A DNA stretch of 64,000 nucleotides from an uncultured Rickettsiales bacterium (GTDB taxonomy: Bacteria > Pseudomonadota > Alphaproteobacteria > Rickettsiales > SXRF01): contig CAZUXB010000004.1 in assembly GCA_964624555.1 (NCBI GenBank), positions 5,825 through 69,824 on the forward strand. Direction: 5' to 3'. A program made the translations under genes and the position numbers. Under the pieces are notes generated by a model, which saw nothing but the letters and a program-made list of their open reading frames with translations, did not search any database and was not told the origin of the DNA. Shown here one piece after another: positions 9,423 through 64,000 of the stretch (its first letter is position 1; each line of letters opens with the position of its first letter).

Positions 9423-9454
9423 AAAAAACCCATCAAATAACTTGACGCACTCGG

Positions 9455-9725: not shown

Positions 9726-9779
9726 CAACAACAGGCCGCAGAATTTTCTGATGGCTTACTAATTTGAGAAAGAAAGTAT

Positions 9780-10271: not shown

Positions 10272-10276
10272 TAAAT

Positions 10277-10783
10277 ATGCCGATATCACTTCACACTCTG
10301 CGTTCAACTGGAAGCGTTCTCCAAAAGGCTCATAATATCTCAGAGGCGCGTACACTTGGAGCGCAAACTGCTTTCCTGTGTCATAGCCACAAGGATAAAG
10401 ACTTAGTGCAAGGCGCGGTCGCCCAACTCCATAAAGCTGGATGGAACGTATACGTAGATTGGGCAGACGCGGCGATGCCGGAAACGCCCAATCGGGAAAC
10501 AGCAGCTAAAATTAAGGATAAGATCGTTGAACTGACATTCTTTCTATTCTTAGCTACCCCTAATTCGATGAATTCAAAATGGTGTCCGTGGGAATTAGGT
10601 TATGCCGATGGGAAAAAGGACATTGAAAAAATTCTCGTAATTCCTACCAGTGATAATGGCTCCACTTATGGCAGCGAATATCTTCAATTATACCGGCGCG
10701 TTGATGTTGGTGGTTCCGGCTTATTAGAAGTATTTTCACCAGGATATCAGCATCACAGCACTTCATTCAGAAATTTATATTAG
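10277..10783 (+). CDS. thsB: Second, different TIR-domain protein (ThsB-like)
   Basis: Starts 5 nt after thsB. AFLCHSHKDKDLV...GWNVYVDW...FLFLATPNSMNSKWCPWELGYADG fits the canonical bacterial TIR layout (SHxxxD start, conserved Glu in WELG). Confidence 0.8.
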   Translation: MPISLHTLRSTGSVLQKAHNISEARTLGAQTAFLCHSHKDKDLVQGAVAQLHKAGWNVYVDWADAAMPETPNRETAAKIKDKIVELTFFLFLATPNSMNSKWCPWELGYADGKKDIEKILVIPTSDNGSTYGSEYLQLYRRVDVGGSGLLEVFSPGYQHHSTSFRNLY

Positions 10784-10791
10784 AGGTTGGA

Positions 10792-13325: not shown

Positions 13326-13408
13326 GATGATAAGATTACTAGATGACAATATGATAAGAAAGTACTAGATAATCTCTAGTCATCTCGTTATCTCGTAATC
13401 TAGTCATC
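13326..13408. repeat. Tandem-octamer hairpin (GATGAnnA / TAGTCATC vocabulary)
   Basis: Left arm 13326-13357 is gatgataa gattacta gatgacaa tatgataa. Right arm 13377-13408 is tagtcatc tcgttatc tcgtaatc tagtcatc. About 24/32 complementary by hand alignment. Lies between tRNA-Pro and dapA. Confidence 0.7.
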
Positions 13409-13461
13409 GGAAAAATGAGTCCTCCTTCTTAACCTCCAACTGCAAACTGTCAACTAAAATT

Positions 13462-16326: not shown

Positions 16327-16334
16327 TAAAAACC

Positions 16335-16415
16335 CCTCTCTAACTCTCCCCACTACGTGGAGAGAGGACTTATTCTTTATTCCCTCTCCCGCTTGCGGGG
16401 GAGGGTTAGGGAGGT
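16335..16415. repeat. Variant or partial copy of the Pro/Gly-coding palindromic element, between convergent genes
   Basis: Two hairpins: cctctctaactctcccc-acta-cgtggagagagg and ttccctctcccgc-ttgc-gggggagggttagggagg. They fill the gap between the stops at 16326 and 16418. Confidence 0.6.
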
Positions 16416-16417
16416 GG

Positions 16418-17893
16418 TTACAGCGTATTCAGCTTCTCACGTTTGCGTTTAGGTGAAGAAGCTATACCAAGAGCTTCCCGGTATTTGGCGACTGTACGCC
16501 GTGCCACGTTGATGTTGCGTTCCTTGAGCAGGTCAACGATATCATCATCCATAAGTATTTTATCAGGTGTTTCTTTTGCGATCATTTCGCCAATGAAATG
16601 TTTTACCGTCTGGCTGGAAAAACTATCGCCGCTGCCGATAGCTCTGGCCAGCGCCGAAGTGAAGAAATATTTCAGCTCGAAGGTGCCGCGCGGGCAGATC
16701 AGGAATTTGCCATTGGTAACGCGTGATATGGTGCTTTCGTGATATCCGGTAGCTGCCGCAATGTCCTTAAGCGTCATCGGTTTCATATAGCGCACACCTA
16801 AGCGGAAGAACGCGTCCTGCTGCTTGACCAGTTCGCTGGCGACCTTGAGCATGGTCTGGGCGCGTTGCTCCAGCGCCCGCACCAGCCAGTTGGCAGAACC
16901 AAACTGTTCACTTAAATAATCCTTGTCTTTTTTATTACGGGTTTCGGCGCTGACTTTTTTGTAGAAGCGTTTATTGACCATTATTTTCGGAAAATTATTC
17001 ATGTTGAGTTCGATATGCCAGTTACCATCAGGCAGGCGGCGCACGAAAATATCCGGCTCCAGAGTCTGCGAAGTTTCATGAACAAAGCCGCCGCCCGGTT
17101 TGGGGTTGAGCTCACGTATCTCGGCTACCATCTGGCGCAGGTCATCCTTATCCACGCCGCACTTTTTTTGCAGCTCGTCAAAACGGCTTTCGGCCAGCAG
17201 GTGCAGATGCTCAAGAAGTTTCTGCATCGCCGGGTCAAGGCGGTTCTTGTCTTTAAGCTGCAAGGACAGGCACTCGGTAAGGTTGCGGGCACAGATTCCA
17301 ACCGGGTCAAAATTCTGCAATGCGGCGAGTGTTTCTTCGATCTCTACCATCTCCACGCCGAACATTTCGGGCAGGGGGCTTAGGTCTTCTTTTATGTAGC
17401 CGGCATCATCGACAAGGTCGATAAGATGCGCGCCAATAAGCAGTTTCGCCGGGTCATGAACATCCATATGCAGCTGGCTTAAAAGATGCTCGCGCAGGGA
17501 AATTCCCTGTGAAGGGTTATCGTCGATGCTGCGTGTATCATCTTCGGCATCATAAGCGGAAGTGCCGCCGCTACTGCTGCTTTCACGCAAATAGTCGCGC
17601 TCGATATTTTCGCTGTCGTCCCAGTTTTCGGAAGAATTTTCGTCAGAAAAATTATCGTCGCTGTTAAAGTCAGCTTCGCGCGGTTCGTCACTTTCCTTGG
17701 GTTTGGCAGATTCCGCGTTATCTTCGCCGGATTCAAGTTCTTCCTGCGAGAGAAACGGATTTTCTTCCAGTGCTTGTTCAACGAATTCGCGTAGTTCAAG
17801 GGAGTTGCATTGCAACAGCTTTATCGATTGCTGTAATGCCTGCGTCATCACCAGTGACTGGCCTTGGCGGAGTTCTAACCTTGGAGCGTTCAT
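16418..17893 (-). CDS. rpoN: RNA polymerase sigma-54 factor
   Basis: N-terminal LELRQGQSLVMTQALQQSIKLLQ, acidic region II and C-terminal RpoN box ARRTVAKYREALGI. Confidence 0.95.
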   Translation of the reverse strand: MNAPRLELRQGQSLVMTQALQQSIKLLQCNSLELREFVEQALEENPFLSQEELESGEDNAESAKPKESDEPREADFNSDDNFSDENSSENWDDSENIERDYLRESSSSGGTSAYDAEDDTRSIDDNPSQGISLREHLLSQLHMDVHDPAKLLIGAHLIDLVDDAGYIKEDLSPLPEMFGVEMVEIEETLAALQNFDPVGICARNLTECLSLQLKDKNRLDPAMQKLLEHLHLLAESRFDELQKKCGVDKDDLRQMVAEIRELNPKPGGGFVHETSQTLEPDIFVRRLPDGNWHIELNMNNFPKIMVNKRFYKKVSAETRNKKDKDYLSEQFGSANWLVRALEQRAQTMLKVASELVKQQDAFFRLGVRYMKPMTLKDIAAATGYHESTISRVTNGKFLICPRGTFELKYFFTSALARAIGSGDSFSSQTVKHFIGEMIAKETPDKILMDDDIVDLLKERNINVARRTVAKYREALGIASSPKRKREKLNTL

Positions 17894-23300: not shown

Positions 23301-23335
23301 CCCGCCAGTTTATCATAAAAAACAAGGCATTACAA

Positions 23336-23399
23336 TCGATAACTCGAGAACTAGAGGACCCGATTACTCGAATTCTCTAGTCCTCGAATCCTCTAATTC
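23336..23399. repeat. Array of eight degenerate octamers (TCGAGGAC family), self-complementary halves
   Basis: tcgataac tcgagaac tagaggac ccgattac | tcgaattc tctagtcc tcgaatcc tctaattc. Homologous to 53125-53217 and 53935-54003. Confidence 0.7.
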
Positions 23400-23620
23400 A
23401 AAACTCTGTGTGGCCAGATACTCAACGGTTTAGGACTTGTTAACTACACGGACAGGTTCTCCTGCCCGCACGGGTTTGCATAAAAGGTGAAGCGTAACCA
23501 ACGCCGCACCAGTTTCCATAGCCTCACACCGTACAGCCTGATTAAGGCGGTGTTGTGTTATCTATAGTTTCAATTCAACTCTACGGGTTAGACGTATAAT
23601 TTTCGTCATTGCTCACAACT

Positions 23621-23716
23621 TCTTCTCCCTCTCCCCTTGCGGGAGAGGGTCGGGGTGAGGGGTATGTCATAAAACTTACCCCCCATCCTAACCTTCCCCC
23701 GCAAGGGGGGAAGGGA
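23621..23716. repeat. Three-stem ~95-nt palindromic element, copy
   Basis: tcttctccctctcccc-ttgc-gggagaggg, then tcggggtgagggg ... ccccccatcctaacc, then ttccccc-gcaa-ggggggaagg. Confidence 0.8.
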
Positions 23717-23971
23717 TTTATGGAGTATGCAATGACGGAATTGATATACGCAATCAACCCCGCAGGATGAGTCCAGATGTCGCGCCGATCCGTTCGGCTT
23801 TCCATGGAATATCTGACCACATTACTCTTCATCTTTCCGAGCATTGGCGTTGTTAGCCATTGGCTCGTGTATTAAGTATACACGTCGCCTTGGCTGCCTA
23901 GCCACTGCTCGAAAATACTCGAGTAATCCCAGAGTATGGGAGAACAAAATGGTCGGGAAGGGGCTTTTTTT

Positions 23972-24038
23972 AGTTACTAGTTACCGGTTACTAGCTACCA
24001 GAAAAATACTCGTAACTGGTAACACGTAACTGGTAACT
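23972..24038. repeat. Tandem-heptamer hairpin (AGTTACn / nGTAACT family), downstream of pilin gene 1
   Basis: Left arm agttact agttacc ggttact agctacc ag. Right arm ctcgtaactggtaacacgtaactggtaact. 24/30 complementary, 7-nt loop. Homologous to 39260-39333. Confidence 0.8.
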
Positions 24039-24137
24039 TGCTGATTACACCAAATTCTTATTGAGTTTAGTATTGCCGGTTTCGGCCGGATTCAGCAACA
24101 ATTCGTAATGTGCGGCACCGGCCAAGGGGAGCCGTTG

Positions 24138-27118: not shown

Positions 27119-27243
27119 ACACCCTCTCCCTCTGGGAGAGGATTCCTTAAAACTCCCTCTCCCTCCGGGAGAGGGCTGGGGTGAGGGCTAAGTAATATAT
27201 AGAACAAAGCCCTCATCCTAACCTTCTCCCAAAGGGAGAAGTG
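27119..27243. repeat. Three-stem palindromic element, copy with an extra leading hairpin
   Basis: ccctctccc-tct-gggagagg, then ctccctctccc-tcc-gggagaggg, then ctggggtgagggct...agccctcatcctaacc, then ttctccc-aaa-gggagaag. Confidence 0.8.
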
Positions 27244-28812: not shown

Positions 28813-28823
28813 AACAAAATTGG

Positions 28824-28851
28824 AAGGTGGGCCTGTTTGCCCGCCTTTTTT
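28824..28851 (+). terminator. Intrinsic terminator / attenuator in the rimP-nusA leader
   Basis: aaggtgggc-ctgttt-gcccgcctt followed by TTTTTT, only ~15 nt downstream of the candidate -10 and 45 nt upstream of the rimP ATG. Confidence 0.6.
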
Positions 28852-30916: not shown

Positions 30917-30982
30917 GTGTGTGAGTGTGGGTGCGAGTGTTGGTGTAGTAGAAAACACTAGCACTAACACTCACACTAACAC
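30917..30982. repeat. Tandem-hexamer hairpin (GTGTnn / CACTnn)
   Basis: gtgtga gtgtgg gtgcga gtgttg gtgtag ... cactag cactaa cactca cactaa cac. About 21/27 complementary. Begins at the base after the nusA stop. Confidence 0.8.
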
Positions 30983-31012
30983 TATAATGTCATAAACTAA
31001 GAAACGAAAAAC

Positions 31013-33556
31013 ATGACCGACGATAACGTAAAAAAAGATACACTGAAAGTAGCCAACCCGGGAAGGTTGCAGCTTACCAAAACCGTCGAAAGCGGTAAGG
31101 TGAAGCAGAGCTTCACGCATGGCCGTTCCAAATCGGTCACGGTGGAAGTGCGCAAAACCCGTACCTTTACTCAGGGCGCCGGAAGCGGGGCTATGGTCGA
31201 GGTGAAACCCAGCTCAGGAGTTTTTGCTGCGCGAAGTACCAATTCTGATAGTGATGATGAGGCAATGCGCCACCTCACTAATGAGGAGCGTCAGAGTAGA
31301 CTTAAGGCTTTAAAACTTGCCGAAGAACAAATGAAGATTGAGGCGGAGCTTGCTGCCAAGCGTCGCGAGGAAGAAAAGCATGCACGCGCCCTGCGCGGTG
31401 AGAGTGAAGATAGCGAAAAAGAAGCAGAAGAAAAAACCATCAAGTCAGATGTGGTGATTCCGCCACCGTCTGGTATCGTTACACCTATAAAATCTGAGCC
31501 TAAATTAAGCGTAAGCAAGCCAGCACCTGCTGCTGCCCAGCCTAATAATGGCATTACCGTTTCCCCAAAACTACACGGAAAAACCCTGCATCACGCGCCG
31601 ATTGAAGAAGTCGAGCAGAAGGAAAAAGGCGGCAAACTCAAGCTGCGTGGTGGTGAAGACCGCCGTTCTTCCGGTAAGATAACTGTCAACCAGGCTCTAT
31701 CTAATATTGAGGAGCAGCGTGTACGTTCTCTGGCCTCCATCCGCCGTGCCCGCGAAAAAGCCATCAAAAAAGCGATGGGCAAATCCACTGAATCGGAAAA
31801 AGTCCTCCGCGATGTGGTGATACCGGAAGCTATCAGCGTTGGTGACCTCGCCAACCGTATGGCTGAACGCACCGTGGATGTAATAAAAGTGCTGATGAAA
31901 CTCGGTATCATGGCCACCGCCACCCAGAATATCGACGCCGATACCGCCGAACTGGTGGTTGGTGAATTCGGCCATAAATTCAAGCGCGTTGCTGAAGGTG
32001 ACGTGGAAAATATTTTAAAAGATGAGCAGGAAGATGCCGAAAGCATGTTGCCGCGCCCCCCGATAGTTACCATCATGGGCCACGTGGACCACGGTAAAAC
32101 CTCGCTGCTTGATGCGCTACGTAAAACCGATGTTGTGGCCAAAGAAGCCGGTGGCATCACCCAGCATATCGGCGCGTACCAGATCGAGGTCGAGGGTGGC
32201 CAGAAAGTTACTTTCCTCGATACTCCCGGCCACGAAGCCTTTACCGCAATGCGCGCGCGCGGTGCGAAAATTACCGATATCGTGGTGCTGGTGGTAGCGG
32301 CTGATGACGGTATCATGGAACAGACCAAGGAAGCGATCGCTCATGCTAAAGCAGCCGGTGTGCCTATCGTTGTTGCGGTGAATAAAATTGATAAGCCGGG
32401 TGCTGATTCCAGCCGTGTGAAACAGGAGCTGATGCAGTATGAGCTGGTTCCTGAAGAGTTCGGCGGCGATACCATGGTGGTGGAAGTGTCGGCCAAAACC
32501 GGGCAAAATCTTGATAAACTTGTGGAAACTATCCTGCTGCAGGCGGAAGTTCTCGAACTCAAAGCCAACCCTAACCGCGTGGCGGCGGGGGTTGTGGTGG
32601 AAGCCAAGCTCGATCAGGGTAAAGGTGTTGTCACCACTATCCTCGTGCAGAAAGGTACGCTCAAAGTTGGCGATATAGTGGTTGCCGGTGCGGCTTACGG
32701 AAAAGTACGCACTATAGTTGACGATAAAAATAATACGCTCAAGGATGCTATTCCCGGTATGCCAGTAGTGATACTGGGTTTAAGCCAGGCGCCAGATGCC
32801 GGTGATGTGTTCTCGGTGGTGGAAAATGAAAAGACTGCGCGCGATATCGCTGAATACCGCGAACGCCGCATCCGCGATAAAAACGTGGTTCTTTCCACAC
32901 GCTCGCTGGATAACCTGTTCGGCGAGGCCGCCGGAACCAACGCCAAGGAACTTTCGGTTATCATCAAAGGTGATGTGCAGGGCTCGGTGGAAGCCATCGC
33001 AGGTTCAGTAGCCAAATATTCTGGCGATGAAGTGGCTGTGCGTGTGCTGCATAGCGGCGTGGGTGCTATCACCGAATCCGATATTACTCTAGCAAAAGCA
33101 ACCGGTGCGATGATAATAGCCTTTAACGTGCGTGCCGCCCCCAAAGCCAAGGAATTGGCGGTTAAGGAAAAGGTCAATATCCGCTATTATTCCATCATCT
33201 ATAATGTTGTTGATGATGTGAAGGCCGCGCTTTCAGGAATGTTATCGCCGACATTGCGCGAAAACTTCCTTGGTTACGCACAAATCCGCGAAGTATTCAA
33301 TATCAGCAAAGCCGGGAAAATTGCCGGTTGTATGGTTACTGACGGGCTCATTAAGCGTGGCGCGAAGGTGCGCTTGCTGCGTGACAATGTGGTGATCCAC
33401 GAAGGCACACTCAAGACACTGAAACGCTTCAAAGACGAGGTGAAGGAAGTCAAAAGCGGGCTGGAATGCGGTATGGCCTTCGAAAATTACGAAGATATCC
33501 GCATCGGCGACCAGATCGAGGCATTTGAAATTGAGGAAACAGCAAGGACAGTATAG
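31013..33556 (+). CDS. infB: Translation initiation factor IF-2
   Basis: [20 protein letters not shown] and NKIDK G-domain motifs; 847 aa. Confidence 0.97.
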
Positions 33557-33560
33557 GGAG

Positions 33561-33602
33561 CGTAAAACGTTTTACGTAAAACGTAATACGGCTTACGAAT
33601 TA
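33561..33602. repeat. Array of six degenerate heptamers (CGTnnnA), partly self-complementary
   Basis: cgtaaaa cgtttta cgtaaaa cgtaata cggctta cgaatta. Fills the infB-rbfA gap. Confidence 0.7.
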
Positions 33603-33604
33603 AG

Positions 33605-34000
33605 ATGCACGATTTATTTACCGAAAAAAAAACAAGTGGCGGCCAGCGCAATTTGCGCGTGGGGGAAGAAATCCGCCATGCCCTCGCCGATATTTTTATG
33701 CGCGGGGAAGTGCATTCCATGGATATTATTTCCAGCTCCATCACCGTGTCGGAAGTGCGCGTAAGCCCCGACCTGAAGAACGCCACCGCTTATGTTATGC
33801 CGCTCGCCGGAAAGAATAAACATGAGCTCATAACCGCGCTGAAAATAGCATCACCGGAACTGCGCCACCTTGTTTCCAAACGCGTAAAACTGCGCCATGT
33901 GCCGAAAATATTCTTCGCCCTTGATGATTCGTATGACGAGGCCGAACGCATCAGCAACCTGCTCAAAAAACCGGAAGTTATTCGCGATATCGAGAAATAG
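33605..34000 (+). CDS. rbfA: Ribosome-binding factor A
   Basis: RNLRVGEEIRHALADIF...ITVSEVRVSPDLKNATAYV. Confidence 0.92.
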   Translation: MHDLFTEKKTSGGQRNLRVGEEIRHALADIFMRGEVHSMDIISSSITVSEVRVSPDLKNATAYVMPLAGKNKHELITALKIASPELRHLVSKRVKLRHVPKIFFALDDSYDEAERISNLLKKPEVIRDIEK

Positions 34001-34017
34001 CATATGGCTGAGTAATT

Positions 34018-34626
34018 ATGGCAGATAACCAAAAAAACTTCGAAGATGTAGTTAAACTTTTAGATAAAAGATCTGGTGGGGATGGTAAAGTTAAAGAACA
34101 ATTATCAGTATACAAAGACGGTGCGACAAGGCTAGCAGAAGAAGGTTTTTCATTTGCTTCGCAGTTTGCTGCCATAGAATCCTTGCATGATTTGGATATT
34201 GCCGCCGGGCAGGCGGTGTATAAAGGCATGATATCTAACCCACTGCTGCATATAGATTTAAAAAAAGAGCATGAAATAAGTTTTGCCGAACAATTTGCGG
34301 CAGCGGTTATGGTCTATGATACTGTGAGCAAGGAAAATATCTATTTAGCTGATATACAAGATATTTACGATGAAACTCGTACTGGAGGTTTGGTATTAAA
34401 TTCTCAGAAGTTAGAAGGGTTGAAAAGATATTATCATAAAGATTTAGGAGCTTATTGTATTTCTGATGAATCTGGCCCAGAACCATATACAGATCTAAGG
34501 AATAAGATAGCTGTATTTGAGACAGGTGCATTTGTTGCATCTATTACAAAAGATACTGAAGGTGCAGCAATACAAAGGGGATCTGGTACAATTACAGACC
34601 CTAGAATAAAGAATAAACACGAATAA
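34018..34626 (+). CDS. Hypothetical protein (202 aa), AT-rich
   Basis: ORF 17 nt after rbfA. No family recognised. Confidence 0.55.
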   Translation: MADNQKNFEDVVKLLDKRSGGDGKVKEQLSVYKDGATRLAEEGFSFASQFAAIESLHDLDIAAGQAVYKGMISNPLLHIDLKKEHEISFAEQFAAAVMVYDTVSKENIYLADIQDIYDETRTGGLVLNSQKLEGLKRYYHKDLGAYCISDESGPEPYTDLRNKIAVFETGAFVASITKDTEGAAIQRGSGTITDPRIKNKHE

Positions 34627-34697
34627 TGGACGGCTGGATAAACCTTGGTTTGTTGCTTATTAAAGAATGCCGGAGCAATTTTTTTATATAGTGTAAT

Positions 34698-35807
34698 ATG
34701 ACAATGAATAATAGAGAGTTACAACAATTTACAAGTAACCGGCTAGTTGGGATCGAAATTATCCGTTTTTTGTCGGCTATTGCCATTCTTTTTATGCACT
34801 ATTCCAGCTTGTCTACAGTGGATGGCAAATTTGTTAGGCCATCCTTAGAGAATCTTCCATTCTATTCTTTTTTTCATGTTTTATACAATCATGGTCACAT
34901 GGGAGTGCAGTTTTTTTGGGGTATCAGCGGTTTTATATTTTTTTATAAATACCGGGAATCAATAAACCAAGGTTTAGTGACTGGAAAAAAGTTTTTTATA
35001 TTAAGATTTTCCAGATTGTACCCATTACATTTAGTAACACTACTGTTAATTTCCCTGTTGCAGTTACTATATCCGCATTTAACAGGGCATCCTTCGGTTT
35101 TGGCAACCCATAACAGTCTTTTTCTTTTTATCCTTCAGCTTTTTATGGCCAGTAATTGGGGCTTTGAAAAAACAAGCCTTTTTGCGGCAGAAGGAATATA
35201 CAGTTTTAACGGTGTAATTTGGTCTGTTTCGGTAGAAATATTAGTTTATTTTATATTCTTTATGCTTCTGCGTTATGTCAGTAAGTCGATATTTGTTAAT
35301 ATAATTATTATATGTTTTTTTACAGTATTAGCCGTGAATTACGAAGTGTTTAGCTGTATGGTATATTTTTACACTGGGGGATTGTCAGCAATCGCAACCA
35401 AGTTTATAAAATCTACCAAAAAAAACAAAGATATAATTTGGATATCCTGGGTTTTTGTAATCGTAACACCGATTTTTATATGGAGCTTTGCATTGCAACC
35501 GGATAGTATTTTTTATCTTCTATATATACCTGTATGCTTATTTTGTTTTTCTCAAGAGTTGCCGTTAAATAACTATACAAAAAAAACTATTGAAACTGCA
35601 GGAAATCTTACCTATTCCAGCTATCTTTTGCATTGCCCAATGCAAATAGTAATATCCTTGTTTTTCTTCTATGTGGGAATAGCAGTGCCAATATACAATC
35701 CATTTTTCTTTATAGCTTATATGGCTACTATGTTAATCTTATCTTATTACACGTATAGATATTTTGAGGTTCCTGTTCAAAATATTATCAGAAAAAAATT
35801 ACTTTAA
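34698..35807 (+). CDS. Acyltransferase family 3 (O-acyltransferase) integral membrane protein
   Basis: RLVGIEIIRFLSAIAILFMH...GVQFFWGISGFIF...RFSRLYPLH and about 10 transmembrane segments. AT-rich: hand count 18/60 G+C in 35221-35280. Confidence 0.8.
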   Translation: MTMNNRELQQFTSNRLVGIEIIRFLSAIAILFMHYSSLSTVDGKFVRPSLENLPFYSFFHVLYNHGHMGVQFFWGISGFIFFYKYRESINQGLVTGKKFFILRFSRLYPLHLVTLLLISLLQLLYPHLTGHPSVLATHNSLFLFILQLFMASNWGFEKTSLFAAEGIYSFNGVIWSVSVEILVYFIFFMLLRYVSKSIFVNIIIICFFTVLAVNYEVFSCMVYFYTGGLSAIATKFIKSTKKNKDIIWISWVFVIVTPIFIWSFALQPDSIFYLLYIPVCLFCFSQELPLNNYTKKTIETAGNLTYSSYLLHCPMQIVISLFFFYVGIAVPIYNPFFFIAYMATMLILSYYTYRYFEVPVQNIIRKKLL

Positions 35808-35809
35808 AT

Positions 35810-36631
35810 ATGCTTATGGAGTTAAACGGCTGGATAAACCTCGATAAACCGCTGGGGATTAGTTCGGCGCATGCGGTGGCGAAGGTGAAATGGCTGCTTA
35901 CCTCCCACCTTAGGGGGGAGGCAAGGAGGGGGGCTGAATTGGCTCAGTCCGAGCAAGTAAGCCCTCACCCTGGCCCTCTCCCTAAGGGAGAGGGGAGAAA
36001 GATAAAGATCGGCCACGCGGGAACGCTGGACCCGCTGGCATCGGGCATACTACCGCTGGCGCTGGGCAAAGCTACTAAAAGCGTTGAGCAGATGATGGGT
36101 TGTGAGAAGGCGTATATTTTTACCGTAACCTGGGGGCAGGAGAGGGCAACTGACGATGCAGCGGGAGATGTTATCGCCGAGTCCGCTGCCAGCCCGAGCA
36201 GGGCAGATATAGAAAAAATACTGCCCCAGTTCATTGGCGAAATATTACAGGTGCCCCCCAATTTTTCTGCCATAAAACTCGATGGAAAAAGGGCTTATGA
36301 CATGGCGCGCAAAGGGCAGGTGGTGGAGATAAAACCACGTAATGTTATTGTAAAATCACTAGAAATCACTTCACTGACAACTGACAACAGACAACTGACC
36401 ACCACCTTCCTCTGTCACTGCGGTAGGGGCACCTATATTCGCTCTCTGGCGCGGGATATGGGCAGGATTTTGGGCTGTTACGGCTATGTTTCGGCACTTC
36501 GCAGGACAAAAGTCGGTAAATTTACGGAAAACAATGCGATTTCGCTGGAAATCTTAGAAAATATGGTGCATAAAGGCTCACTTGATTTTTTGCAACCTGT
36601 GGAATTCGTGCTGGACGACATCTTGGCATGA
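35810..36631 (+). CDS. truB: tRNA pseudouridine-55 synthase TruB, carrying an in-frame repeat-element insertion
   Basis: NGWINLDKPLGISS, GHAGTLDPLASGILPLALGKATK and CGRGTYIRSLARDMG. 33 extra residues (TSHLRGEARRGAELAQSEQVSPHPGPLPKGEGR) sit between KVKWLL and KIKIGHAGTLDP. Confidence 0.93.
   Translation: MLMELNGWINLDKPLGISSAHAVAKVKWLLTSHLRGEARRGAELAQSEQVSPHPGPLPKGEGRKIKIGHAGTLDPLASGILPLALGKATKSVEQMMGCEKAYIFTVTWGQERATDDAAGDVIAESAASPSRADIEKILPQFIGEILQVPPNFSAIKLDGKRAYDMARKGQVVEIKPRNVIVKSLEITSLTTDNRQLTTTFLCHCGRGTYIRSLARDMGRILGCYGYVSALRRTKVGKFTENNAISLEILENMVHKGSLDFLQPVEFVLDDILA
35900..35998 (-). repeat. Three-stem palindromic element inserted in-frame inside truB (reverse orientation)
   Basis: cctccc-acctta-gggggagg ... 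agccctcaccctggccctctcc-cta-agggagagggg is the reverse complement of the intergenic copies. About 99 nt = 33 codons. Confidence 0.8.
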
Positions 36632-36662
36632 ATGAAACTTGGTGTTTGTGTTTAATTTAAAA

Positions 36663-36741
36663 GCGGACAGCGGTCGGCGATCAGCGGTCGGTAAGAAAGT
36701 CTTACTAATCCTGGCCACTGACAACTGACCACTGACAACTG
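36663..36741. repeat. Tandem-heptamer hairpin (GCGGnCn / CTGACnA)
   Basis: gcggaca gcggtcg gcgatca gcggtcg gtaag-aaagt-cttac ... cactgac aactgac cactgac aactg. Imperfect stem; perfect 5-bp apex gtaag/cttac. Confidence 0.65.
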
Positions 36742-36755
36742 AAAGGGAAGCTACG

Positions 36756-37022
36756 ATGTCGCCACAAGCTAAGAAAAAAGATACTATAAAGGCCTACGCA
36801 ACCAAAAAAGATGATACCGGTTCACCGGAAGTTCAGGTAGCCCTGCTTACCGACCGCATCAACCATTTAACCGAGCATTTCACCAGCCACAAGAATGACC
36901 ATCATTCCCGTCGTGGCCTGCTGATCCTCGTTGGCCGCCGCCGCCGCCTTCTTGACTATTTAAAGAGAAGCGATAACGCCCGCTACGAAGCGTTGATCAA
37001 GAAATTAGGTATCCGTAAATAA
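36756..37022 (+). CDS. rpsO: 30S ribosomal protein S15
   Basis: [33 protein letters not shown]. Confidence 0.97.
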
Positions 37023-37024
37023 TT

Positions 37025-37096
37025 GGTGTTAGTGTGGGTGTGAGTGTTGGTGTAAAGCCAAAACTTCACTCACACTACCATTCACACTCACACAAC
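37025..37096. repeat. Tandem-hexamer hairpin (GTGTnn / CACnnn), homologous to 30917-30982
   Basis: gtgtta gtgtgg gtgtga gtgttg gtgtaa ... cactca cactac cattca cactca cac. Confidence 0.75.
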
Positions 37097-37121
37097 TAAG
37101 CAGGAAGAGAGATATAAAATT

Positions 37122-39254
37122 ATGTTTAATGTAACGAAGAAATCAATTGAATGGGGTGGCCGCACACTAACACTTGAAACCGGAAAAATAGCCCGCCAGG
37201 CCGATGGCGCAGTACTCGCAACCTATGGCAATACCGTGGTACTCTGCACCGTAGTTGCCGCAAAAAAACCAAAAGCTGATGTTGATTTCTTCCCGCTTAC
37301 CGTAAACTATCAGGAAAAAGCCTTCGCCGCCGGTAAAATTCCCGGTGGCTTTTTCAAACGTGAAGGCCGCCCGACTGAAAAAGAAGTGCTGACCTCGCGT
37401 CTGATCGACCGCCCGATCCGCCCATTATTCCCCAATGGATTCTACAACGAAACACAGGTTGTGTGCACATTGCTTTCTCACGACATGCAGAATGATCCGG
37501 ATATCGTTTCTATGATCGGCGCATCGGCTGCACTAACACTTTCCGGTGTTCCCTTCATGGGCCCGGTATTTGGTGCCCGTGTTGGTTATGTGAACGGCGA
37601 ATATATGCTCAACCCAACCCGTGCTGAACTGCTTGATAGCAAGCTCGACCTCGTGGTTGCCGGTACTCGCACTTCTGTTCTCATGGTTGAATCAGAAGCG
37701 CAGGAACTTTCTGAAGAAGTGATGCTTGGCGCCGTGACCTACGGCCACAAGGAATCACAGGCCGTTATCAAAATGATCATTGAGCTTGCTGAGGCCGCTG
37801 CCAAAGAACCGTGGGATTTCAAAAAACCCGAAGATGCCGAGCTCGAAGCGAAAGTTCGCGCCGCTGCGGAAGCAGACCTGCGCGCCGCTTATAAGCTCAC
37901 CGGCAAACAGGATCGCTCCAACCGTCTTGATGAAATTAAAACCGCTGTCAAAGAAAAACTCGGCGGCGAAAACGGCTATGATGATAAAACCCTCGGCAAC
38001 CAGATCAAAAAACTGGAACAGGACATCGTGCGCACCGCCTATGTGGAAAACAAAGTGCGTATCGATGGCCGCGGCCCAGCCGATATCCGCCAGATAGTCA
38101 GCGAAGTTGGAGTTCTGCCTATGACCCACGGTTCGGCGCTGTTCACCCGCGGTGAAACACAGGCCGTAGTTGTTGCCACGCTCGGCACCAGCCAGGATGA
38201 ACAGGTCATTGACGCGCTGGAAGGCGAATATCGCGAGAACTTCATGCTCCACTACAATTTCCCGCCATACTCAACCGGTGAAACTGGCCGCCTTGGTTCG
38301 CCAGGACGCCGTGAAATTGGTCATGGCAAACTGGCATGGCGCGCGGTACACCCGATGCTGCCGGAAAAAGAAGAATTCCCCTACACGCTGCGCTGCGTAT
38401 CGGAAATCACGGAATCGAACGGTTCATCTTCGATGGCGACCGTGTGCGGTAGCTCATTGGCGCTGATGGATGCCGGTGTGCCGCTGAAACGCCCGGTTGC
38501 CGGTATCGCGATGGGCCTCATAAAAGAAAAATCCGGTTTCATCGTTCTTTCCGATATCCTTGGTGATGAAGATCATCTCGGCGATATGGATTTCAAAGTG
38601 GCTGGTACGTCTGACGGTATCACTGCATTGCAGATGGATATCAAGATTGATGGCATCACCGAAGAGATCATGAAGGTGGCGCTGACTCAGGCAAATGCCG
38701 GACGCAAGCACATCTTGGGCGAAATGGGCAAAGCGCTTTCCGCCCCGCGTGAATCTGTGGGCAGCACTGCGCCACGTATCACCACCATGAGCATACCGAA
38801 AGATAAAATTCGCGAAGTTATCGGCTCCGGCGGTAAAGTTATACGCGAAATCTGCGAAGTGACCGGCGCGAAAGTGGACATTGAAGATGACGGTACCGTG
38901 CGTATCGCTGCAACTTCGGAAGAAGCTGGAAAAAAGGCTTACGACTGGATATACGGCATCGTTGCTGAGCCGGAAGTTGGTCAGATACATAGCGGCAAGG
39001 TTGTGCGCGTGGTTGATTTCGGCGCCTTCGTGAACTTCTTCGGTGCGAAAGATGGCCTTGTGCATATCAGTGAACTGGCTGACCACCGCGTAAATAAAGT
39101 TGAAGACGTTGTAAAAGAAGGCGACACAGTGAAGGTGAAGGTTCTCGATATTGACAACCGTGGCAAGATCCGCCTCTCCATGCGGGTTGTGAACCAGGAA
39201 ACTGGCGAGGACATGTCTGACAGCATGCCATCACGCGAAAAGAAAGCCCAGTAG
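37122..39254 (+). CDS. pnp: Polyribonucleotide nucleotidyltransferase (PNPase)
   Basis: Two RNase PH domains, then KH and S1 ([15 protein letters not shown]); 710 aa. Confidence 0.97.
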
Positions 39255-39259
39255 AAAAT

Positions 39260-39333
39260 AGTTACGAGTTACCGGTTGCCAGTTACCAGAAAATTATTTA
39301 ACACTGGTATCTCGTAACTGGTAACAGGTAACT
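39260..39333. repeat. Tandem-heptamer hairpin (AGTTACn family), homologous to 23972-24038
   Basis: agttacg agttacc ggttgcc agttacc ag, 14-nt loop, then ctggtatctcgtaactggtaacaggtaact. 24/30 complementary. Ends 6 nt before the next ATG. Confidence 0.8.
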
Positions 39334-39339
39334 AAAATC

Positions 39340-40020: not shown

Positions 40021-40410
40021 ATGATGGAAGAAAACAAACCTGAAAATAATGACGAAAAGCATAAGAAGCATCACTTCTGGCAAAGGCGTCATGAAAAAGA
40101 AAAGGAAATCGCCAACCACCGTGGTCAGGCCGCTGCTTATGCTACCGTTGGTACTATTGGTACGCTTGGTTGGGGAACTGCTGAGGCAATGGGAAGTGGC
40201 TTGGCATCAGAACTTGCAGAAGTTGCGTTGTTTGAGGCGTCCGATAAAATAAGCAAAAAAGCATGGAAAAGAATCGGTGCTGTTGTGGGTGGGGTGGCGG
40301 TAGGCGCATTTGTATATGCCGGGATAAAACATTTCCGCGCTGAAAAATTACAGGCTGAATTGAATGAAAAAGACTCTTCTCCCTCTCCCCTTGGGAGAGG
40401 GCTGGGGTGA
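40021..40410 (+). CDS. Hypothetical protein (129 aa); C-terminal 11 residues and stop are supplied by a repeat element
   Basis: Gly-rich hydrophobic core AAAYATVGTIGTLGWGTAEAMGSGLA. The tail SSPSPLGRGLG* lies within element 40376-40468. Confidence 0.5.
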   Translation: MMEENKPENNDEKHKKHHFWQRRHEKEKEIANHRGQAAAYATVGTIGTLGWGTAEAMGSGLASELAEVALFEASDKISKKAWKRIGAVVGGVAVGAFVYAGIKHFRAEKLQAELNEKDSSPSPLGRGLG

Positions 40411-40468
40411 GGGCTAAGTAACCACGATAGACAGCCCTCATCCTAACCTTCTCCCAGAGGGAGAAGGA
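40376..40468. repeat. Three-stem ~95-nt palindromic element, reference copy
   Basis: Stem a ccctctccc-ctt-gggagaggg (9 bp). Long-range stem ggggtgagggct...agccctcatcct. Stem b ccttctccc-aga-gggagaagg (9 bp). Confidence 0.85.
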
Positions 40469-40522
40469 ACTATCCTAAAGCAATTTCCTTGTAAAAATAT
40501 AGCTAACTGCTAAACCAGTTGG

Positions 40523-44847: not shown

Positions 44848-44854
44848 CAAGTGA

Positions 44855-44929
44855 GATGACTCGATTATTCGATGATTCAGAAAATAATTAGTCATCGAGT
44901 TATCTAGTTATCTAGTCATCTAGTCATCC
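44855..44929. repeat. Tandem-octamer hairpin (GATGAnTC / TAGTCATC), related to 13326-13408
   Basis: gatgactc gattattc gatgattc ... tagtcatc gagttatc tagttatc tagtcatc tagtcatcc. 18/24 complementary. Confidence 0.75.
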
Positions 44930-44945
44930 AAAAAGGAGAAAAACA

Positions 44946-53120: not shown

Positions 53121-53124
53121 TAAT

Positions 53125-53217
53125 TCGAGGACTCGAGGATTAGAGGACTCGAGAACTGGAAAATATAATAATGAAAACATATTGAGTGCTCGGGTTCTCT
53201 AATACTCTAGTCCTCGG
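53125..53217. repeat. Tandem-octamer hairpin (TCGAGGAC family)
   Basis: tcgaggac tcgaggat tagaggac tcgagaac, 29-nt loop, then gtgctcgggttctctaatactctagtcctcgg. 26/32 complementary. Confidence 0.85.
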
Positions 53218-53933: not shown

Positions 53934-53934
53934 G

Positions 53935-54003
53935 GCGAGTATTAGAGGACTCGAGGACCCGAGGAATCGAGTTCTCTAGTCCTCGAATTCTCGAATCCTC
54001 GCT
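53935..54003. repeat. Array of ~8.5 degenerate octamers (TCGAGGAC family) filling the whole rplY-pth gap
   Basis: gcgagtat tagaggac tcgaggac ccgaggaa | tcgagttc tctagtcc tcgaattc tcgaatcc tcgct, then ATG of pth at 54004. Confidence 0.8.
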
Positions 54004-55145: not shown

Positions 55146-56246
55146 ATGGGTTTTAAATGCGGTATCGTTGGCCTGCCCAATGTCGGTAAGTCAACCTTGT
55201 TCAATGCGCTGCTTTCTACCATGCAGGCGGAAGCGGCGAATTATCCGTTCTGCACCATCGAGCCGAATGTGGGTAGGGTCAGTGTCCCAGATCCGCGCCT
55301 TGAAAAGCTGGCGGCGGTAGCAGGCAGCGCGCAGATAATCCCGACCCAATTAGAGTTTGTGGATATCGCCGGGCTGGTACGCGGTGCGAGCAAAGGCGAG
55401 GGGCTGGGCAACCAGTTTCTGGCACATATCCGCGAGGTGGATGCGATACTCTATATGCTGCGCTGTTTTGAAGACGGCAACATCACCCATGTCGAAGGTA
55501 CTATCGACCCGCTGCGCGATAGCGATATCATCGAAATGGAGCTGACCATCGCCGATATGGAAAGTCTTGAAAAGCGCCTGCCCGCCCTCCAGAAAAAAGC
55601 CAAGAGCGATAAGGAAGCTGCCGAGCAGGTGGCGGTTATCGAGAAGGTTCTAAAAGTGGTTTCTGACGGCAAACCGGCACGGCATACTGAGCTTAAGGAT
55701 GACGTTGAAAAAAAGATAATGAAGAACCTGCAACTGCTTACCTCTAAACCGGTAATGTATGTGTGTAACGTTTCCGAAGGCGATGCCGCGAATGGCAACG
55801 CTCTTACCGCAAAAGTGGCGGAGATGGCGGAAAAGAAAAAAGCGCCGTGCGTGGTAATTTCCGCGCGTATCGAAGCGGAGATTTCGATGCTGCCCAGCGA
55901 AGAAGATAAGAAAGAATTTTTAGAGTCTTTGAACTTGAAAGAAACAGGACTGTCGCGCATCATCCACGCAGGATATCAACTGCTCGAACTGGTGACCTAT
56001 TTCACCGTGGGGCCAAAGGAAGCACGGGCTTGGACGATAACCAACGGCATGAGCGCGCCACAGGCGGCGGGCGTTATCCACAGCGACTTCGAAAAAGGCT
56101 TTATCCGCGCCGAAACAATTGCCTATAACGATTATATAAGCTGTAATGGTGAAGCTGGCGCCAAGGAAGCAGGAAAATTCCGTCTGGAAGGAAAAGATTA
56201 TCGCGTAAAGGATGGCGATGTGTTACATTTCAGGTTCAATAACTAG
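55146..56246 (+). CDS. ychF: Ribosome-binding ATPase YchF
   Basis: GIVGLPNVGKSTLFNAL, FVDIAGLV and a C-terminal TGS-like domain (HFRFN). Confidence 0.97.
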   Translation: MGFKCGIVGLPNVGKSTLFNALLSTMQAEAANYPFCTIEPNVGRVSVPDPRLEKLAAVAGSAQIIPTQLEFVDIAGLVRGASKGEGLGNQFLAHIREVDAILYMLRCFEDGNITHVEGTIDPLRDSDIIEMELTIADMESLEKRLPALQKKAKSDKEAAEQVAVIEKVLKVVSDGKPARHTELKDDVEKKIMKNLQLLTSKPVMYVCNVSEGDAANGNALTAKVAEMAEKKKAPCVVISARIEAEISMLPSEEDKKEFLESLNLKETGLSRIIHAGYQLLELVTYFTVGPKEARAWTITNGMSAPQAAGVIHSDFEKGFIRAETIAYNDYISCNGEAGAKEAGKFRLEGKDYRVKDGDVLHFRFNN

Positions 56247-56263
56247 ATGATTAGATAATTAGT

Positions 56264-57219: not shown

Positions 57220-58422
57220 ATGTCTATTCTTGCCAACCGTCTTGACCTTGTAAAACCTTCTCCAACCCTTGCCGTTACTGCCAAAGCCGCCGAGCTTAAA
57301 GCCGCCGGGAAAGATGTTATCGGCCTTGGTGCCGGTGAGCCGGATTTCGATACGCCGGAATATGTAAAACAGGCAGCCTATGAGGCTATAAAAAATGGCC
57401 AGACCAAATATACTCCGGTGGCTGGAACACCGGCGCTTAAAAAAGCAATAACCGATAAATTCAAACGCGAAAATGGTCTTGAGTATGCGCCAAACCAGAT
57501 AGTTGCCGGAACCGGTGCAAAACAAATTATTTTTAATGCGCTGCTGGCAACCCTCAATAAGGGCGATGAGGTTATTATTCCGGCTCCGTACTGGGTTTCT
57601 TACCCGGATATGGTTCTGTTCGCAGAAGGAACGCCGGTGACTATTTCCGGTCATGAAAAAGACGGTTTTAAACTGAAACCGGACGTGCTGGAAAAAGCTA
57701 TTACCCCAAAAACCAAATGGCTGATTTTGAACTCGCCTTCAAACCCGACCGGCGCGGCCTATAGCAAAGATGAACTGAGGGCGCTGGCCGATGTGCTGCT
57801 TAAACACCCGCAGGTGATGATACTGGCGGACGATATCTATGAGCATCTGGTCTATGACGGTTTCAAATTCTACACCATCGCGCAGGTCGAACCAAAATTA
57901 TACGAGCGCACCCTGACGGTGAACGGTGTTTCCAAAGCCTATGCCATGACCGGCTGGCGTATCGGTTATGCCGGAGGGCCGAAACAAATAGTAACAGCTA
58001 TCGCCGACATCCAGTCGCAAAGCACCTCCAACCCTTGCTCAATAAGTCAGGCTGCTTCTGCGGCTGCGCTGAACGGTGACCAGGCATTCCTCGAAGACTG
58101 GAAAAAATCTTTTGCGGGCCGCCGGAATTTAGTGGTCGATGCACTAAATAAAATTCCCGGCCTGAGCTGCCTGAAACCAGAGGGCGCGTTCTACGTGTTC
58201 CCGAACATGACCAAACTGGTGGGCAAAAAAACTCCGGATGGAAAAACAATTTCTAATAGTGCAGACCTGTGCGAGTATCTGCTTGACGAAGCGCTTGTCG
58301 CCGCCGTTGCCGGTAGCGCGTTTGGCATGGAAGGTTATTTCCGCATCTCCTACGCAACCAGCGAGGCAATCCTCACCAAGGCGATGGAGCGCATTGCCAA
58401 GGCGTGTGGGGATTTAAAATAG
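57220..58422 (+). CDS. aatA: Aspartate aminotransferase (class I PLP aminotransferase, alphaproteobacterial AatA type)
   Basis: GAGEPDFDTP, NSPSNPTGA, SKAYAMTGWRIGY and FRISYATS. Confidence 0.9.
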   Translation: MSILANRLDLVKPSPTLAVTAKAAELKAAGKDVIGLGAGEPDFDTPEYVKQAAYEAIKNGQTKYTPVAGTPALKKAITDKFKRENGLEYAPNQIVAGTGAKQIIFNALLATLNKGDEVIIPAPYWVSYPDMVLFAEGTPVTISGHEKDGFKLKPDVLEKAITPKTKWLILNSPSNPTGAAYSKDELRALADVLLKHPQVMILADDIYEHLVYDGFKFYTIAQVEPKLYERTLTVNGVSKAYAMTGWRIGYAGGPKQIVTAIADIQSQSTSNPCSISQAASAAALNGDQAFLEDWKKSFAGRRNLVVDALNKIPGLSCLKPEGAFYVFPNMTKLVGKKTPDGKTISNSADLCEYLLDEALVAAVAGSAFGMEGYFRISYATSEAILTKAMERIAKACGDLK

Positions 58423-58482
58423 GATGACGGATTACTGATGACGGATGACAAGAATTATAACGTCATCCGACATCTGCTATCC
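58422..58482. repeat. Tandem-heptamer hairpin (GGATGAC units) exactly filling the gap between convergent aatA and pccA stops
   Basis: ggatgac ggattac tgatgac ggatgac, 12-nt loop, then gtcatccgacatctgctatcc. 17/21 complementary. Confidence 0.8.
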
Positions 58483-58483
58483 G

Positions 58484-60475: not shown

Positions 60476-60522
60476 TATTTACTCGACAGTTGCGCACTCG
60501 ATACTCGATTGGGCGGCTAAGC

Positions 60523-60652
60523 GTACTCGGTACTCGGTACTCGGTTATGGATTTCGAACGTGACAATTTGTACCTTGCAAAGTGCGGAAGTTCAACGCAA
60601 AAATGGAAGGAAATTATATTAAAAAAACACCGAGTACCGAGTACCGAGTACC
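60523..60652. repeat. Perfect 23-bp inverted repeat built from (TACTCGG)x3 / (CCGAGTA)x3, 83-nt spacer
   Basis: gtactcggtactcggtactcggt at 60523-60545 and accgagtaccgagtaccgagtac at 60629-60651. The right arm abuts the flgC stop. Further degenerate heptamers lie at 60479-60522. Confidence 0.9.
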
Positions 60653-61047
60653 TAGCTCAACATATCCAGCAGGTTCTGTTCTAACTGGTCGGCAATTTTT
60701 ATGGATTTCAGGTTCGCCTTATAATCATAAGAGGCAATCTGCATCTTCACCATTTCTTCGGCCTGATCAACATTGGGTGCTGATACAAAACCATAATCAT
60801 CGGCCTGCGGGCTTTCGGGGTCAAAATATTTTACAACCGGATTATTCGAATCACGAACCTCGGTACGTACGCCACCAGCGCCAAGAGATATCTGCACCAC
60901 ATCCTGCGGTATGTAGGGTTTGTTGGTGGTAACACCATTTACCTGTGTCGCTGTGCTGTCCTGGTTGGCAACGTTGCTGGCACTGACTTCAATACGCCTG
61001 GTCGCGGCGGCCATTCCAGAAAGGGCAGAACCTATAGCTGTGGACAT
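60652..61047 (-). CDS. flgC: Flagellar basal-body rod protein FlgC-like (orphan in this window)
   Basis: ALSGMAAATRRIEVSASNVAN...FDPESPQADDYGFVSAPNVDQAEEMVKMQIASYDYKANLK follows FlgC N- and C-terminal rod signatures. AAGAGGA SD. Confidence 0.75.
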   Translation of the reverse strand: MSTAIGSALSGMAAATRRIEVSASNVANQDSTATQVNGVTTNKPYIPQDVVQISLGAGGVRTEVRDSNNPVVKYFDPESPQADDYGFVSAPNVDQAEEMVKMQIASYDYKANLKSIKIADQLEQNLLDMLS

Positions 61048-63883: not shown

Positions 63884-63918
63884 CACTAGCCACTAATCAC
63901 TAGCAACTAGCCACTACC
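63884..63918. repeat. Single-arm array of five degenerate heptamers (CACTAGC) immediately after the groEL stop
   Basis: cactagc cactaat cactagc aactagc cactacc. I saw no complementary arm nearby. Confidence 0.75.
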
Positions 63919-64000
63919 TTAGTAGTCCATATCACCCATGCCACCCATTCCGCCCATGCCACCCATTCCGGCAGCGCCTGCGCCCGGTTTTTTATCTTCC
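63919..64000 (-). CDS. groL: Chaperonin GroEL, C-terminal fragment (gene continues beyond the window)
   Basis: Reverse complement translates to ...EDKKPGAGAAGMGGMGGMGGMGDMDY*, the characteristic GGM-repeat tail. Confidence 0.85.
   Translation of the reverse strand, partial: EDKKPGAGAAGMGGMGGMGGMGDMDY

Follow-up and report, generated by a model that had tools for sequence, protein, structure and literature searches.

Tandem-unit hairpins of probable STRR type at gene ends and between genes of an uncultured alphaproteobacterium

In a stretch of 64,000 nt from an uncultured Rickettsiales bacterium (contig CAZUXB010000004.1 of assembly GCA_964624555.1, positions 5,825 to 69,824; in the following called the window), long imperfect hairpins lie between many of the genes, and their arms consist of head-to-tail units of 6, 7 or 8 nt. 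We counted 13 such periodic hairpins and three single direct arrays, which together represent about nine unit families (Table 1). They are located almost only at transcribed gene ends and in intercistronic gaps. The hairpins very probably are repeat elements of the type known as STRR sequences (short tandemly repeated repetitive), built from an array of 6-8-nt units, a short spacer and a complementary array. Our overall reading, to which we assign a probability of roughly 0.55, combines this assignment with the siting at gene ends and with a role as mRNA stem-loops. The kind of element is known; what is new is the lineage that carries it, its density, the prevalence of inverted over direct arrays and periods that range from 6 to 8. 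Neither function nor origin has been established for STRR-type heptamers, which have been known for more than 30 years. Finding this architecture in an unrelated, compact and uncultured alphaproteobacterial lineage widens the known distribution of the repeat type and shows that the hairpin form can dominate over the direct-array form.

The hairpins are frequent in the block formed by rimP, nusA, infB, rbfA, two inserted open reading frames (ORFs), truB, rpsO, pnp and a gene for a PEMT-family methyltransferase (assignments by NCBIfam and Pfam). Five hairpins of this block had been quoted with their units in an initial annotation made from the sequence alone, and all five are present where it placed them. 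For their arms, Tandem Repeats Finder (TRF) returned a period of 6 after nusA and rpsO and of 7 after infB, truB and pnp. An inverted-repeat search delineated arms of 28 nt (79% complementarity) after nusA at 30919-30982, 27 nt (74%) after rpsO at 37026-37093, 31 nt (81%) after pnp at 39259-39334, and 17-18 nt (82-89%) after infB at 33561-33597. The truB-rpsO hairpin has arms from two non-identical unit families (GCGRTCR and CTGACMA) and the weakest z-score of the set. Across the window, TRF and our own periodicity scan found 2.7-5.2 repeat copies per arm and unit periods of 6 at two sites, 7 at seven and 8 at five. The same architecture had been announced at nine further sites; eight of these are hairpins, while the ninth, at 63884, consists of one direct array and lacks a complementary arm. 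In the hairpin at 44854-44930, the 3' arm is longer by two units. The structure at 60516-60658 has 100% heptamer arms placed around a 75-nt insert, not a short loop, with a U7 after the 5' arm; the insert may represent a nested element, or else a sequence that recently entered an older hairpin.

Table 1 Repeat hairpins, arrays and palindromic elements. Positions are those of the window unless a locus label (L number) is given; z, fold score against dinucleotide shuffles.
Feature	Coordinates	Strand	Units and setting	z
Post-nusA hairpin	30917..30987	+	period 6, GTGTKR / CACTMA; stem 30919-30982; registers 18/21, 18/21	-6.3
Post-infB hairpin	33561..33600	+	period 7, CGTAAAA/CGTTTTA; stem 33561-33597	-3.2
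truB-rpsO hairpin	36662..36745	+	period 7, GCGRTCR 5' arm, CTGACMA 3' arm	-2.9
rpsO-pnp (post-rpsO) hairpin	37023..37096	+	period 6, GTGTKR / CACTMA	-4.0
Post-pnp hairpin	39259..39334	+	period 7, AGTTACC / GGTAACT	-8.0
Period-8 hairpin	13326..13409	.	AGATGAYW / TAGTCATC; between tRNA-Pro (-) and dapA (+)	-3.6
Period-8 hairpin	23334..23399	-	CTCGAGRA family; 36 nt upstream of relA/spoT start	-5.6
Period-7 hairpin	23970..24041	-	AGTTACY; paralogue of post-pnp hairpin	-5.8
Period-8 hairpin	44854..44930	+	CGATGATT / TAGTCATC; between porin and solute-binding-protein genes	-3.8
Period-8 hairpin	53122..53217	+	TCGAGGAC; between prs and rplY (L25)	-8.5
Period-8 hairpin	53934..54003	+	occupies entire L25-pth gap	-4.1
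Period-7 hairpin	58422..58483	.	GGATGAC; between convergent aminotransferase and pccA genes	-5.4
Period-7 hairpin	60516..60658	-	perfect (GTACTCG)x3.3 / (ACCGAGT)x3.4 arms, 75-nt insert	-7.8
Single direct heptamer array	63884..63919	.	CACTAGC; without complementary arm; adjoins terminator-like hairpin	
Single direct period-8 array	56238..56263	.	AGATRATT; ychF / FKBP junction	
Heptamer array	36371..36403	+	CTGACAA x3.9; inside hypervariable loop of truB ORF	
rpsO-pnp leader hairpin	L002 9882-9978; L144 9884-9975; L145 9890-9978; L146 9883-9972			
AT-rich period-8 hairpin	L116 8911-8986; L118 2136-2208; L122 8857-8929; L131 5522-5602; L134 8182-8253			
Second palindromic element, copies	16329-16420; 23618-23716; 27120-27242; 35908-35987; 40378-40470; 63740-63842			

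Each hairpin was folded as RNA and compared with 200 dinucleotide shuffles. All 13 sites lay below the shuffled sequences, with z-scores from -2.9 to -8.5, those of the eight sites outside the block ranging from -3.6 to -8.5. Predicted stem energies are -24 to -44 kcal/mol and the predicted stems contain 23-31 pairs, with exceptions after infB (14) and at 58422 (18) and 60516 (52). Where the units vary, every 4-6 bp, the stems are interrupted. We then used a two-register detector, demanding arms of 21 nt with at least 16 of 21 Watson-Crick pairs and, after a shift of 5-9 nt, a further register with 15 or more of 21. It found 12 hairpins in the window and none in any of 30 second-order Markov shuffles, and across 2.01 Mb from other loci it gave 13 matches (0.006/kb), mostly GC-rich low-complexity false positives. 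The post-infB and post-truB hairpins score under its strict threshold. A detector of consensus-unit pairing was dropped in its favor, being overly strict and missing half of the hairpins. Rfam, scanned over the window, recognized tRNA-Pro only, and no RNA family overlapped any hairpin.

Pairing in several registers, as had been proposed, was confirmed in two ways. The best and the shifted register scored equally (18/18, 17/17 and 18/18), and permuting the units of the 3' arm gave folds no worse than the native order (Fisher combined p = 0.75). Base-by-base maintenance of the pairing was therefore rejected: the arms are complementary at the level of the unit, and the pairing is thus register-tolerant. 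Inverted arrays (13) outnumber direct arrays (3) in the window. Stop codons in all three frames were considered as a design feature and discarded, as they occur inconsistently.

An assembly artefact was likewise excluded because the same structures occur in a second assembly of the same sample and in the separate assemblies of twelve relatives. From these relatives we took the operon for comparison; their polynucleotide phosphorylase (PNPase) is 77-92% identical, and with the window the set comprises 13 genomes. A Logan contig (SRR12487045_158055, our locus L135) is 100% identical to positions 32146-37053 of the window and stops inside the 5' arm of the post-rpsO hairpin, showing that the elements fragment short-read assemblies. 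In practice they can also truncate or enter ORFs, such as truB. Near-identical strains were sought for copy-number polymorphism, and a TruB-based metagenome scan gave nothing closer than 60%. Exact-protein look-ups returned nothing for PNPase and, for S15, only the Logan contig of the same genome.

Looking at the position relative to genes, five of the six gaps of at least 30 nt in the rimP-pnp block hold a periodic hairpin. The initial annotation had claimed one for every intercistronic gap, which goes too far: no periodic hairpin was found in the 71-nt gap at 34627-34697, and four other gaps measure just 2-17 nt. The distances from stop codon to stem are 2, 4, 30, 5, 4, 6, 4, 0 and 0 nt, that is, 0-6 nt in eight of nine cases, and 0-32 nt separate the stem end from the following start codon. 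The post-nusA hairpin, for instance, begins 2 nt past the nusA stop and finishes 30 nt short of the infB start, the corresponding distances being 4 and 7 nt for the post-infB hairpin, next to which no Shine-Dalgarno sequence is visible, and 4 and 5 nt for the post-pnp hairpin. The gap is filled almost wholly, leaving no Shine-Dalgarno sequence, at infB-rbfA, pnp-PEMT and L25-pth; in the last, stop and start codons abut the stem base with a 0-nt spacer on either side. The structure at 60516-60658 starts at a flagellar rod gene's stop codon. Throughout the window, in gaps of at least 30 nt, co-directional or convergent sequence (about 3.7 kb) contains 11-12 hairpins and divergent sequence (about 1.6 kb) a single one, where about five would be expected (P about 0.04), so that the suggested siting downstream of genes was borne out. 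Periodic hairpins occupy about 40% of the usable co-directional gaps, core translation operons included. The sense strand folds more stably than the antisense strand in 9 of 11 cases in the window and, with the relatives added, in 18 of 28 (Wilcoxon p = 0.016, binomial p = 0.09).

The comparison with relatives provides a series of 13 genomes in which the units differ at one and the same junction, with a homologous, compensated hairpin in four of them. The closest PNPases (91-92% identical) belong to metagenome-assembled genomes labeled 'Rickettsiales bacterium'; those of Azospirillum and others follow at about 70%. Between rpsO and pnp, 12 of the 13 genomes have a hairpin and nine of them periodic arms. 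The units there are GTGTKR in the window, AGCGATC, CAGCGGT and CAGCGRC in L001, L136 and L137, and AGTGCY in L139, while L002, L144, L145 and L146 have in common a hairpin of CTAG heptamers (TCTAGGG GCTAGGA GCTAGTG). The latter hairpins can be aligned, and at four pairs both sides are altered with the pairing kept. These compensatory changes, read from the sequences, argue that some copies, at least, serve as RNA structures. The CTAG hairpin further has a small apical helix and is accompanied by a second downstream hairpin (TTTCA...TGAAAGGA). It is kept across genomes of 45-57% GC and is a candidate for a conserved pnp leader RNA of this clade. Between infB and rbfA, three genomes have a gap of 4-9 nt and five have unrelated hairpins that hold stop and start codon at the foot of the stem.

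Periodic hairpins were also seen farther away. An AT-rich hairpin of period 8 (AAAGATTA AGAAATTA AAAGATTT ... AATCTTTT) with a T-tail is conserved about 1 kb upstream of truB in five distant metagenomic loci; their TruB shares 36-39% identity with that of the window. Hairpins with periodic arms therefore exist in at least one further lineage.

Within the window, all-against-all BLAST joins the hairpins in pairs or trios only and reveals no sequence common to all, consistent with the earlier distinction from REP/BIME, RPE and Correia-type elements. Three period-8 hairpins of the TCGAGGAC type are related to each other, as are two AGATGAYW hairpins. The post-nusA and post-rpsO hairpins agree in their 5' arms at 27 of 29 positions, including the order of the unit variants, and the post-pnp hairpin shares 82% identity over 67 nt with its paralogue at about 23970-24041. 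Set against MITE or Correia-type elements, paralogous copies exist but differ in their loops, and no target-site duplication is visible at the infB-rbfA insertion junctions. Families also recur between genomes. AGTTACC units follow pnp in the window and L139, infB in L081 and nusA in L137; GTGTKR units follow nusA in the window and L002 and lie in the S49-S1 gap in L137. Over arms and loop alike, the truB-rpsO hairpin of the window is colinear with the hairpins that L001, L136 and L137 carry between rpsO and pnp, so that a homologous element lies on opposite sides of rpsO in different genomes. Paralogy and the recurrence of units across genomes point to small dispersed families whose members are copied from locus to locus and afterwards diverge as units turn over. 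Both this origin and the sharing of a handful of unit families by a clade of uncultured alphaproteobacteria are partly shown by these data. The initial idea of local generation by slippage hence accounts for half of this at best, the hairpins not being purely local products.

The unit vocabulary is biased. CTAG occurs 77 times in the window, with 246 occurrences expected from the base composition, and its density is 16.2/kb in hairpins, 2.3/kb in other intergenic and 0.8/kb in coding sequence (7-fold and 20-fold differences). ACT/AGT is enriched 3.2-fold in the window hairpins and present in most unit families; AGT or ACT likewise occurs in the hairpin units of Nostoc punctiforme and in the published STRR and TAACTGA units. 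Both enrichments were spotted post hoc, in unit families that are not independent.

STRR sequences were reportedly first described by Mazel et al. in 1990. STRR hairpins, mostly of 7-bp repeats, are 'not unusual in filamentous cyanobacteria'; they lie between hupS and hupL in four strains and also upstream of hoxW, and increased transcript stability or translational coupling were suggested as their roles (PMC2670836). With the same detector, we found three period-7 hairpins (AGGAGTC, TTATCAG and TGAGTAA) and one of period 8 in 150 kb of the Nostoc punctiforme plasmid pNPUN01, all in co-directional gaps and one beginning 3 nt past the mobF stop. The architecture had initially been taken for an undescribed class, a view that these published and newly detected hairpins contradict. 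Like STRR sequences, the arrays of the window consist of tandem units of about 7 nt, form several families, are intergenic and dispersed, and are followed by a complementary array to give a hairpin between genes. They differ in that the host is an alphaproteobacterium and not a filamentous, heterocyst-forming cyanobacterium, that periods 6 and 8 are as common as 7, and that inverted arrays far outnumber direct ones. The density is 0.19/kb, compared to 0.02-0.03/kb on the Nostoc plasmid (about 7-9 times). Tandem doublets of CCCCAGT, TTGGTCA and CAACAGT, which we take to be the units of STRR1-3, are absent from the window.

Other heptamers come close. The 'ttgtcag' repeat has 44 copies in Nostoc 7120 (PMC2408588), and CTGACAA, present in tandem in the window, is its reverse complement. 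TAACTGA heptamers are known from marine Beggiatoaceae, some cyanobacteria and Bacteroidetes, with 169 direct sets and one inverted set, and forward arrays ending 1 nt upstream of start codons (MacGregor 2015, PMC4679880). The window resembles these repeats in its intergenic heptamer arrays, the occasional translated array within an ORF and the patchy phylogenetic distribution, and its TAACTGG and CAACTGA are single-base variants of TAACTGA. In contrast to them, its arrays are inverted pairs next to stop codons; TAACTGA itself occurs as four singletons in the window and nowhere in tandem. For the same inverted-array architecture outside cyanobacteria, our literature search found only papers on direct repeats. 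A dedicated, transferable system that makes or reads such repeats might be common to cyanobacteria, Beggiatoaceae, some Bacteroidetes and this alphaproteobacterial clade, and write register-tolerant stem-loops from a small set of units with CTAG/AGT as 'operon punctuation'. Units of 6-8 nt at cistron boundaries would then serve both mRNA processing and the hand-over of ribosomes from stop to start. We consider such a system decidedly unlikely.

Dispersed palindromes of other bacteria share the siting but not the structure. The hairpins are similar to REP, BIME and REPIN elements of enterobacteria and pseudomonads as extragenic palindromes at 3' and intercistronic operon sites that form dispersed families. 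REP elements, however, have one conserved sequence of 20-40 nt with a GTAG or CGTC head, are mobilized by RAYT and have arms that are not tandem arrays, whereas the hairpins have no common consensus and no RAYT was found in the 64 kb. Rickettsia palindromic elements (RPEs) are likewise palindromic repeats with tolerated insertion into genes, and here too the alphaproteobacterium is labeled 'Rickettsiales'. They are conserved sequences of 100-150 nt, often in frame in ORFs, a description that fits another element of the window (the GGGAGAGGG element, see below), not the periodic hairpins.

How could STRR-type elements act in this genome? Members of a family would be copied between loci, and the arrays would then change as whole units are gained, lost and shuffled. 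In the polycistronic mRNA, they would form imperfect stem-loops of 23-31 bp without U-tracts and would not terminate transcription. These stem-loops may be barriers to 3' exonucleases and/or processing sites of the RNase III type, setting the stability of the upstream cistron. A stem that fills the gap would hold the stop codon and the following start side by side, and translational coupling could thereby survive the insertion. Between rpsO and pnp, the periodic element may stand in for the leader hairpin that nearly every relative has. With 23-31 pairs, most predicted stems have the length of about 20 bp or more expected of an RNase III processing hairpin. The barrier or processing role would match three systems: REP elements, which stabilize upstream mRNA against 3' exonucleases (malE-malF); plastid 3' inverted repeats, which are processing and stability elements and not terminators; and the E. 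coli rpsO-pnp leader hairpin, an RNase III site for pnp autoregulation. With the last, the hairpins of 12 of the 13 clade genomes share a long stem-loop at the same operon position, but they have no sequence homology to it and their arms are periodic. A general function at the RNA level seems possible to us, if slightly less probable than its opposite.

Several points weigh against a functional reading, beginning with the fact that everything said here about RNA function is inferred. One hairpin (13326) lies in the divergent gap between tRNA-Pro and dapA. The sense-strand bias is weak by the binomial test and amounts to 9 of 17 in the relatives alone. L138 has no hairpin after nusA, and the infB-rbfA gap measures just 4-5 nt in L136 and L137; close relatives thus lack a hairpin at several junctions, which indicates that the hairpins are dispensable. 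A stem that abuts the stop codon can also follow from the constraint of a ribosome-binding site at the right end of the gap. A Pfam/NCBIfam scan of the approximately 45 ORFs of the window found no copying machinery such as a transposase or RAYT. The truB gene provides a further argument. Its product in the window (35810-36755 region) lacks about 60 C-terminal residues that are present in all five aligned relatives, and the truB-rpsO hairpin sits in the resulting 124-nt gap, where relatives have gaps of 20-23 nt or overlapping genes. The CTGACAA array at 36371-36403 is translated in a hypervariable loop of TruB and adds four residues compared with four of the five aligned relatives. Loss of the C-terminus at the insertion and an array within the ORF look mutational rather than adaptive.

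The main rival explanation accordingly regards the hairpins as selfish elements or mutational by-products of slippage and ectopic copying, without a function of their own and tolerated where harmless, as in non-coding DNA downstream of genes; at coupled junctions, a self-contained hairpin would simply fold out of the way. It is not exclusive of a function as RNA. We judge it unlikely as the whole account, even though much of the evidence suits it: presence or absence differs among genomes with 88-92% identical PNPase, paralogous copies exist inside one genome, an insertion is tied to the TruB truncation and an array sits in a permissive TruB loop, single arrays occur without a partner, the order of unit variants is not mirrored between arms, and the window genome is richer in hairpins than its relatives. 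A second palindromic element family behaves alike, including an in-frame insertion in truB. Slippage alone, however, does not predict the 13 to 3 excess of inverted over direct arrays. The near absence from about 1.6 kb of divergent gaps, the independent gain of unrelated hairpins at infB-rbfA in five genomes, the conservation of the rpsO-pnp hairpin with compensatory changes and the modest sense-strand bias also speak against it. Termination had been put forward initially in the form of register-tolerant terminators. Terminators or attenuators independent of a U-tract would explain the location directly past stop codons and the strong stems, and a T7 comes after the L081 copy. E. coli has an attenuating terminator after rpsO. 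Yet no hairpin matches the intrinsic terminator pattern of an unbroken, GC-rich stem of 5-15 bp with a U-tract behind it: among the 17 terminator-like sites between 28 and 46 kb of the window there is no periodic hairpin, and U-tracts are lacking. Canonical terminators do occur in the same genomes (28822-28849 in the window; after pnp in L001, L136, L137 and L138). Many hairpins moreover lie inside operons that need read-through, such as nusA-infB-rbfA and L25-pth with its 0-nt spacer to the start, and stems broken every 4-6 bp are unlike those of terminators. We therefore regard this role as highly improbable.

The units could instead be binding sites, each for one protein monomer on single-stranded RNA or DNA, with the hairpin incidental or competing. 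The limited unit vocabulary enriched in CTAG and ACT/AGT and the same unit families across genomes would suit such arrays, and a heptamer-binding factor was argued for by MacGregor 2015 (PMC4679880) and in a Nostoc recF/recO study; S1, Csp or CsrA-type proteins were proposed for the TAACTGA heptamers. GGA motifs of the CsrA type were found in just two unit families and dismissed. At least ten unit families in three periods would, however, require many proteins or a single very tolerant one, the arms always come with a complement that sequesters the single-stranded site, and the orthologous position retains the hairpin, not the unit. We hold arrays of binding sites to be very unlikely. Extremely improbable, finally, is a role at the DNA level, as cruciform or slipped-strand structure, in binding nucleoid proteins or gyrase as for BIMEs, or in replication or recombination. 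Perfect symmetry lets both strands fold, in 10 of 28 cases the antisense fold is the better one, and short-read contigs break at hairpins; the bias to transcribed gene ends and the compensatory changes nevertheless suit RNA better. The reading of STRR-type elements at gene ends with a role in the mRNA is the one we prefer.

Besides the periodic hairpins, the window contains another dispersed palindrome, unrelated to them and about 95-105 nt long (consensus CTCCCTCTCCCCTTGGGAGAGGGCTGGGGTGAGGGC..loop..GCCCTCATCCTAACCTTCTCCCAGAGGGAGAAGG), the GGGAGAGGG element, whose behavior is RPE-like. One copy lies in frame inside truB as a 32-aa insertion missing from five relatives, and another makes up the 3' end of ORF 40021-40410. 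An 87-aa ORF at 23581-23844 has no Pfam match, includes a copy of this element and may not be a gene. Next to it, between two hairpins upstream of relA/spoT, about 180 nt of GC-rich, strongly structured non-coding sequence (23400-23580, minus strand) gave no Rfam match. The rbfA-truB junction (34018-35807) is an insertion hot spot: the window has a 202-aa ORF without known family and an Acyl_transf_3 protein, L137 a rhomboid protease (7815-8723), L145 a 97-aa ORF (8323-8616), and L001 and L136 nothing. At 63925-63972 on the minus strand, a 9/18-nt repeat encodes a (GGM)n tail that looks like the GroEL C-terminus running off the window end. Positions 7763-12225, a low-GC (0.40) stretch, hold a Thoeris-like anti-phage cluster with a nucleotidyltransferase, a WYL regulator, two TIR proteins (ThsB-type) and a SIR2+STALD protein (ThsA-type).

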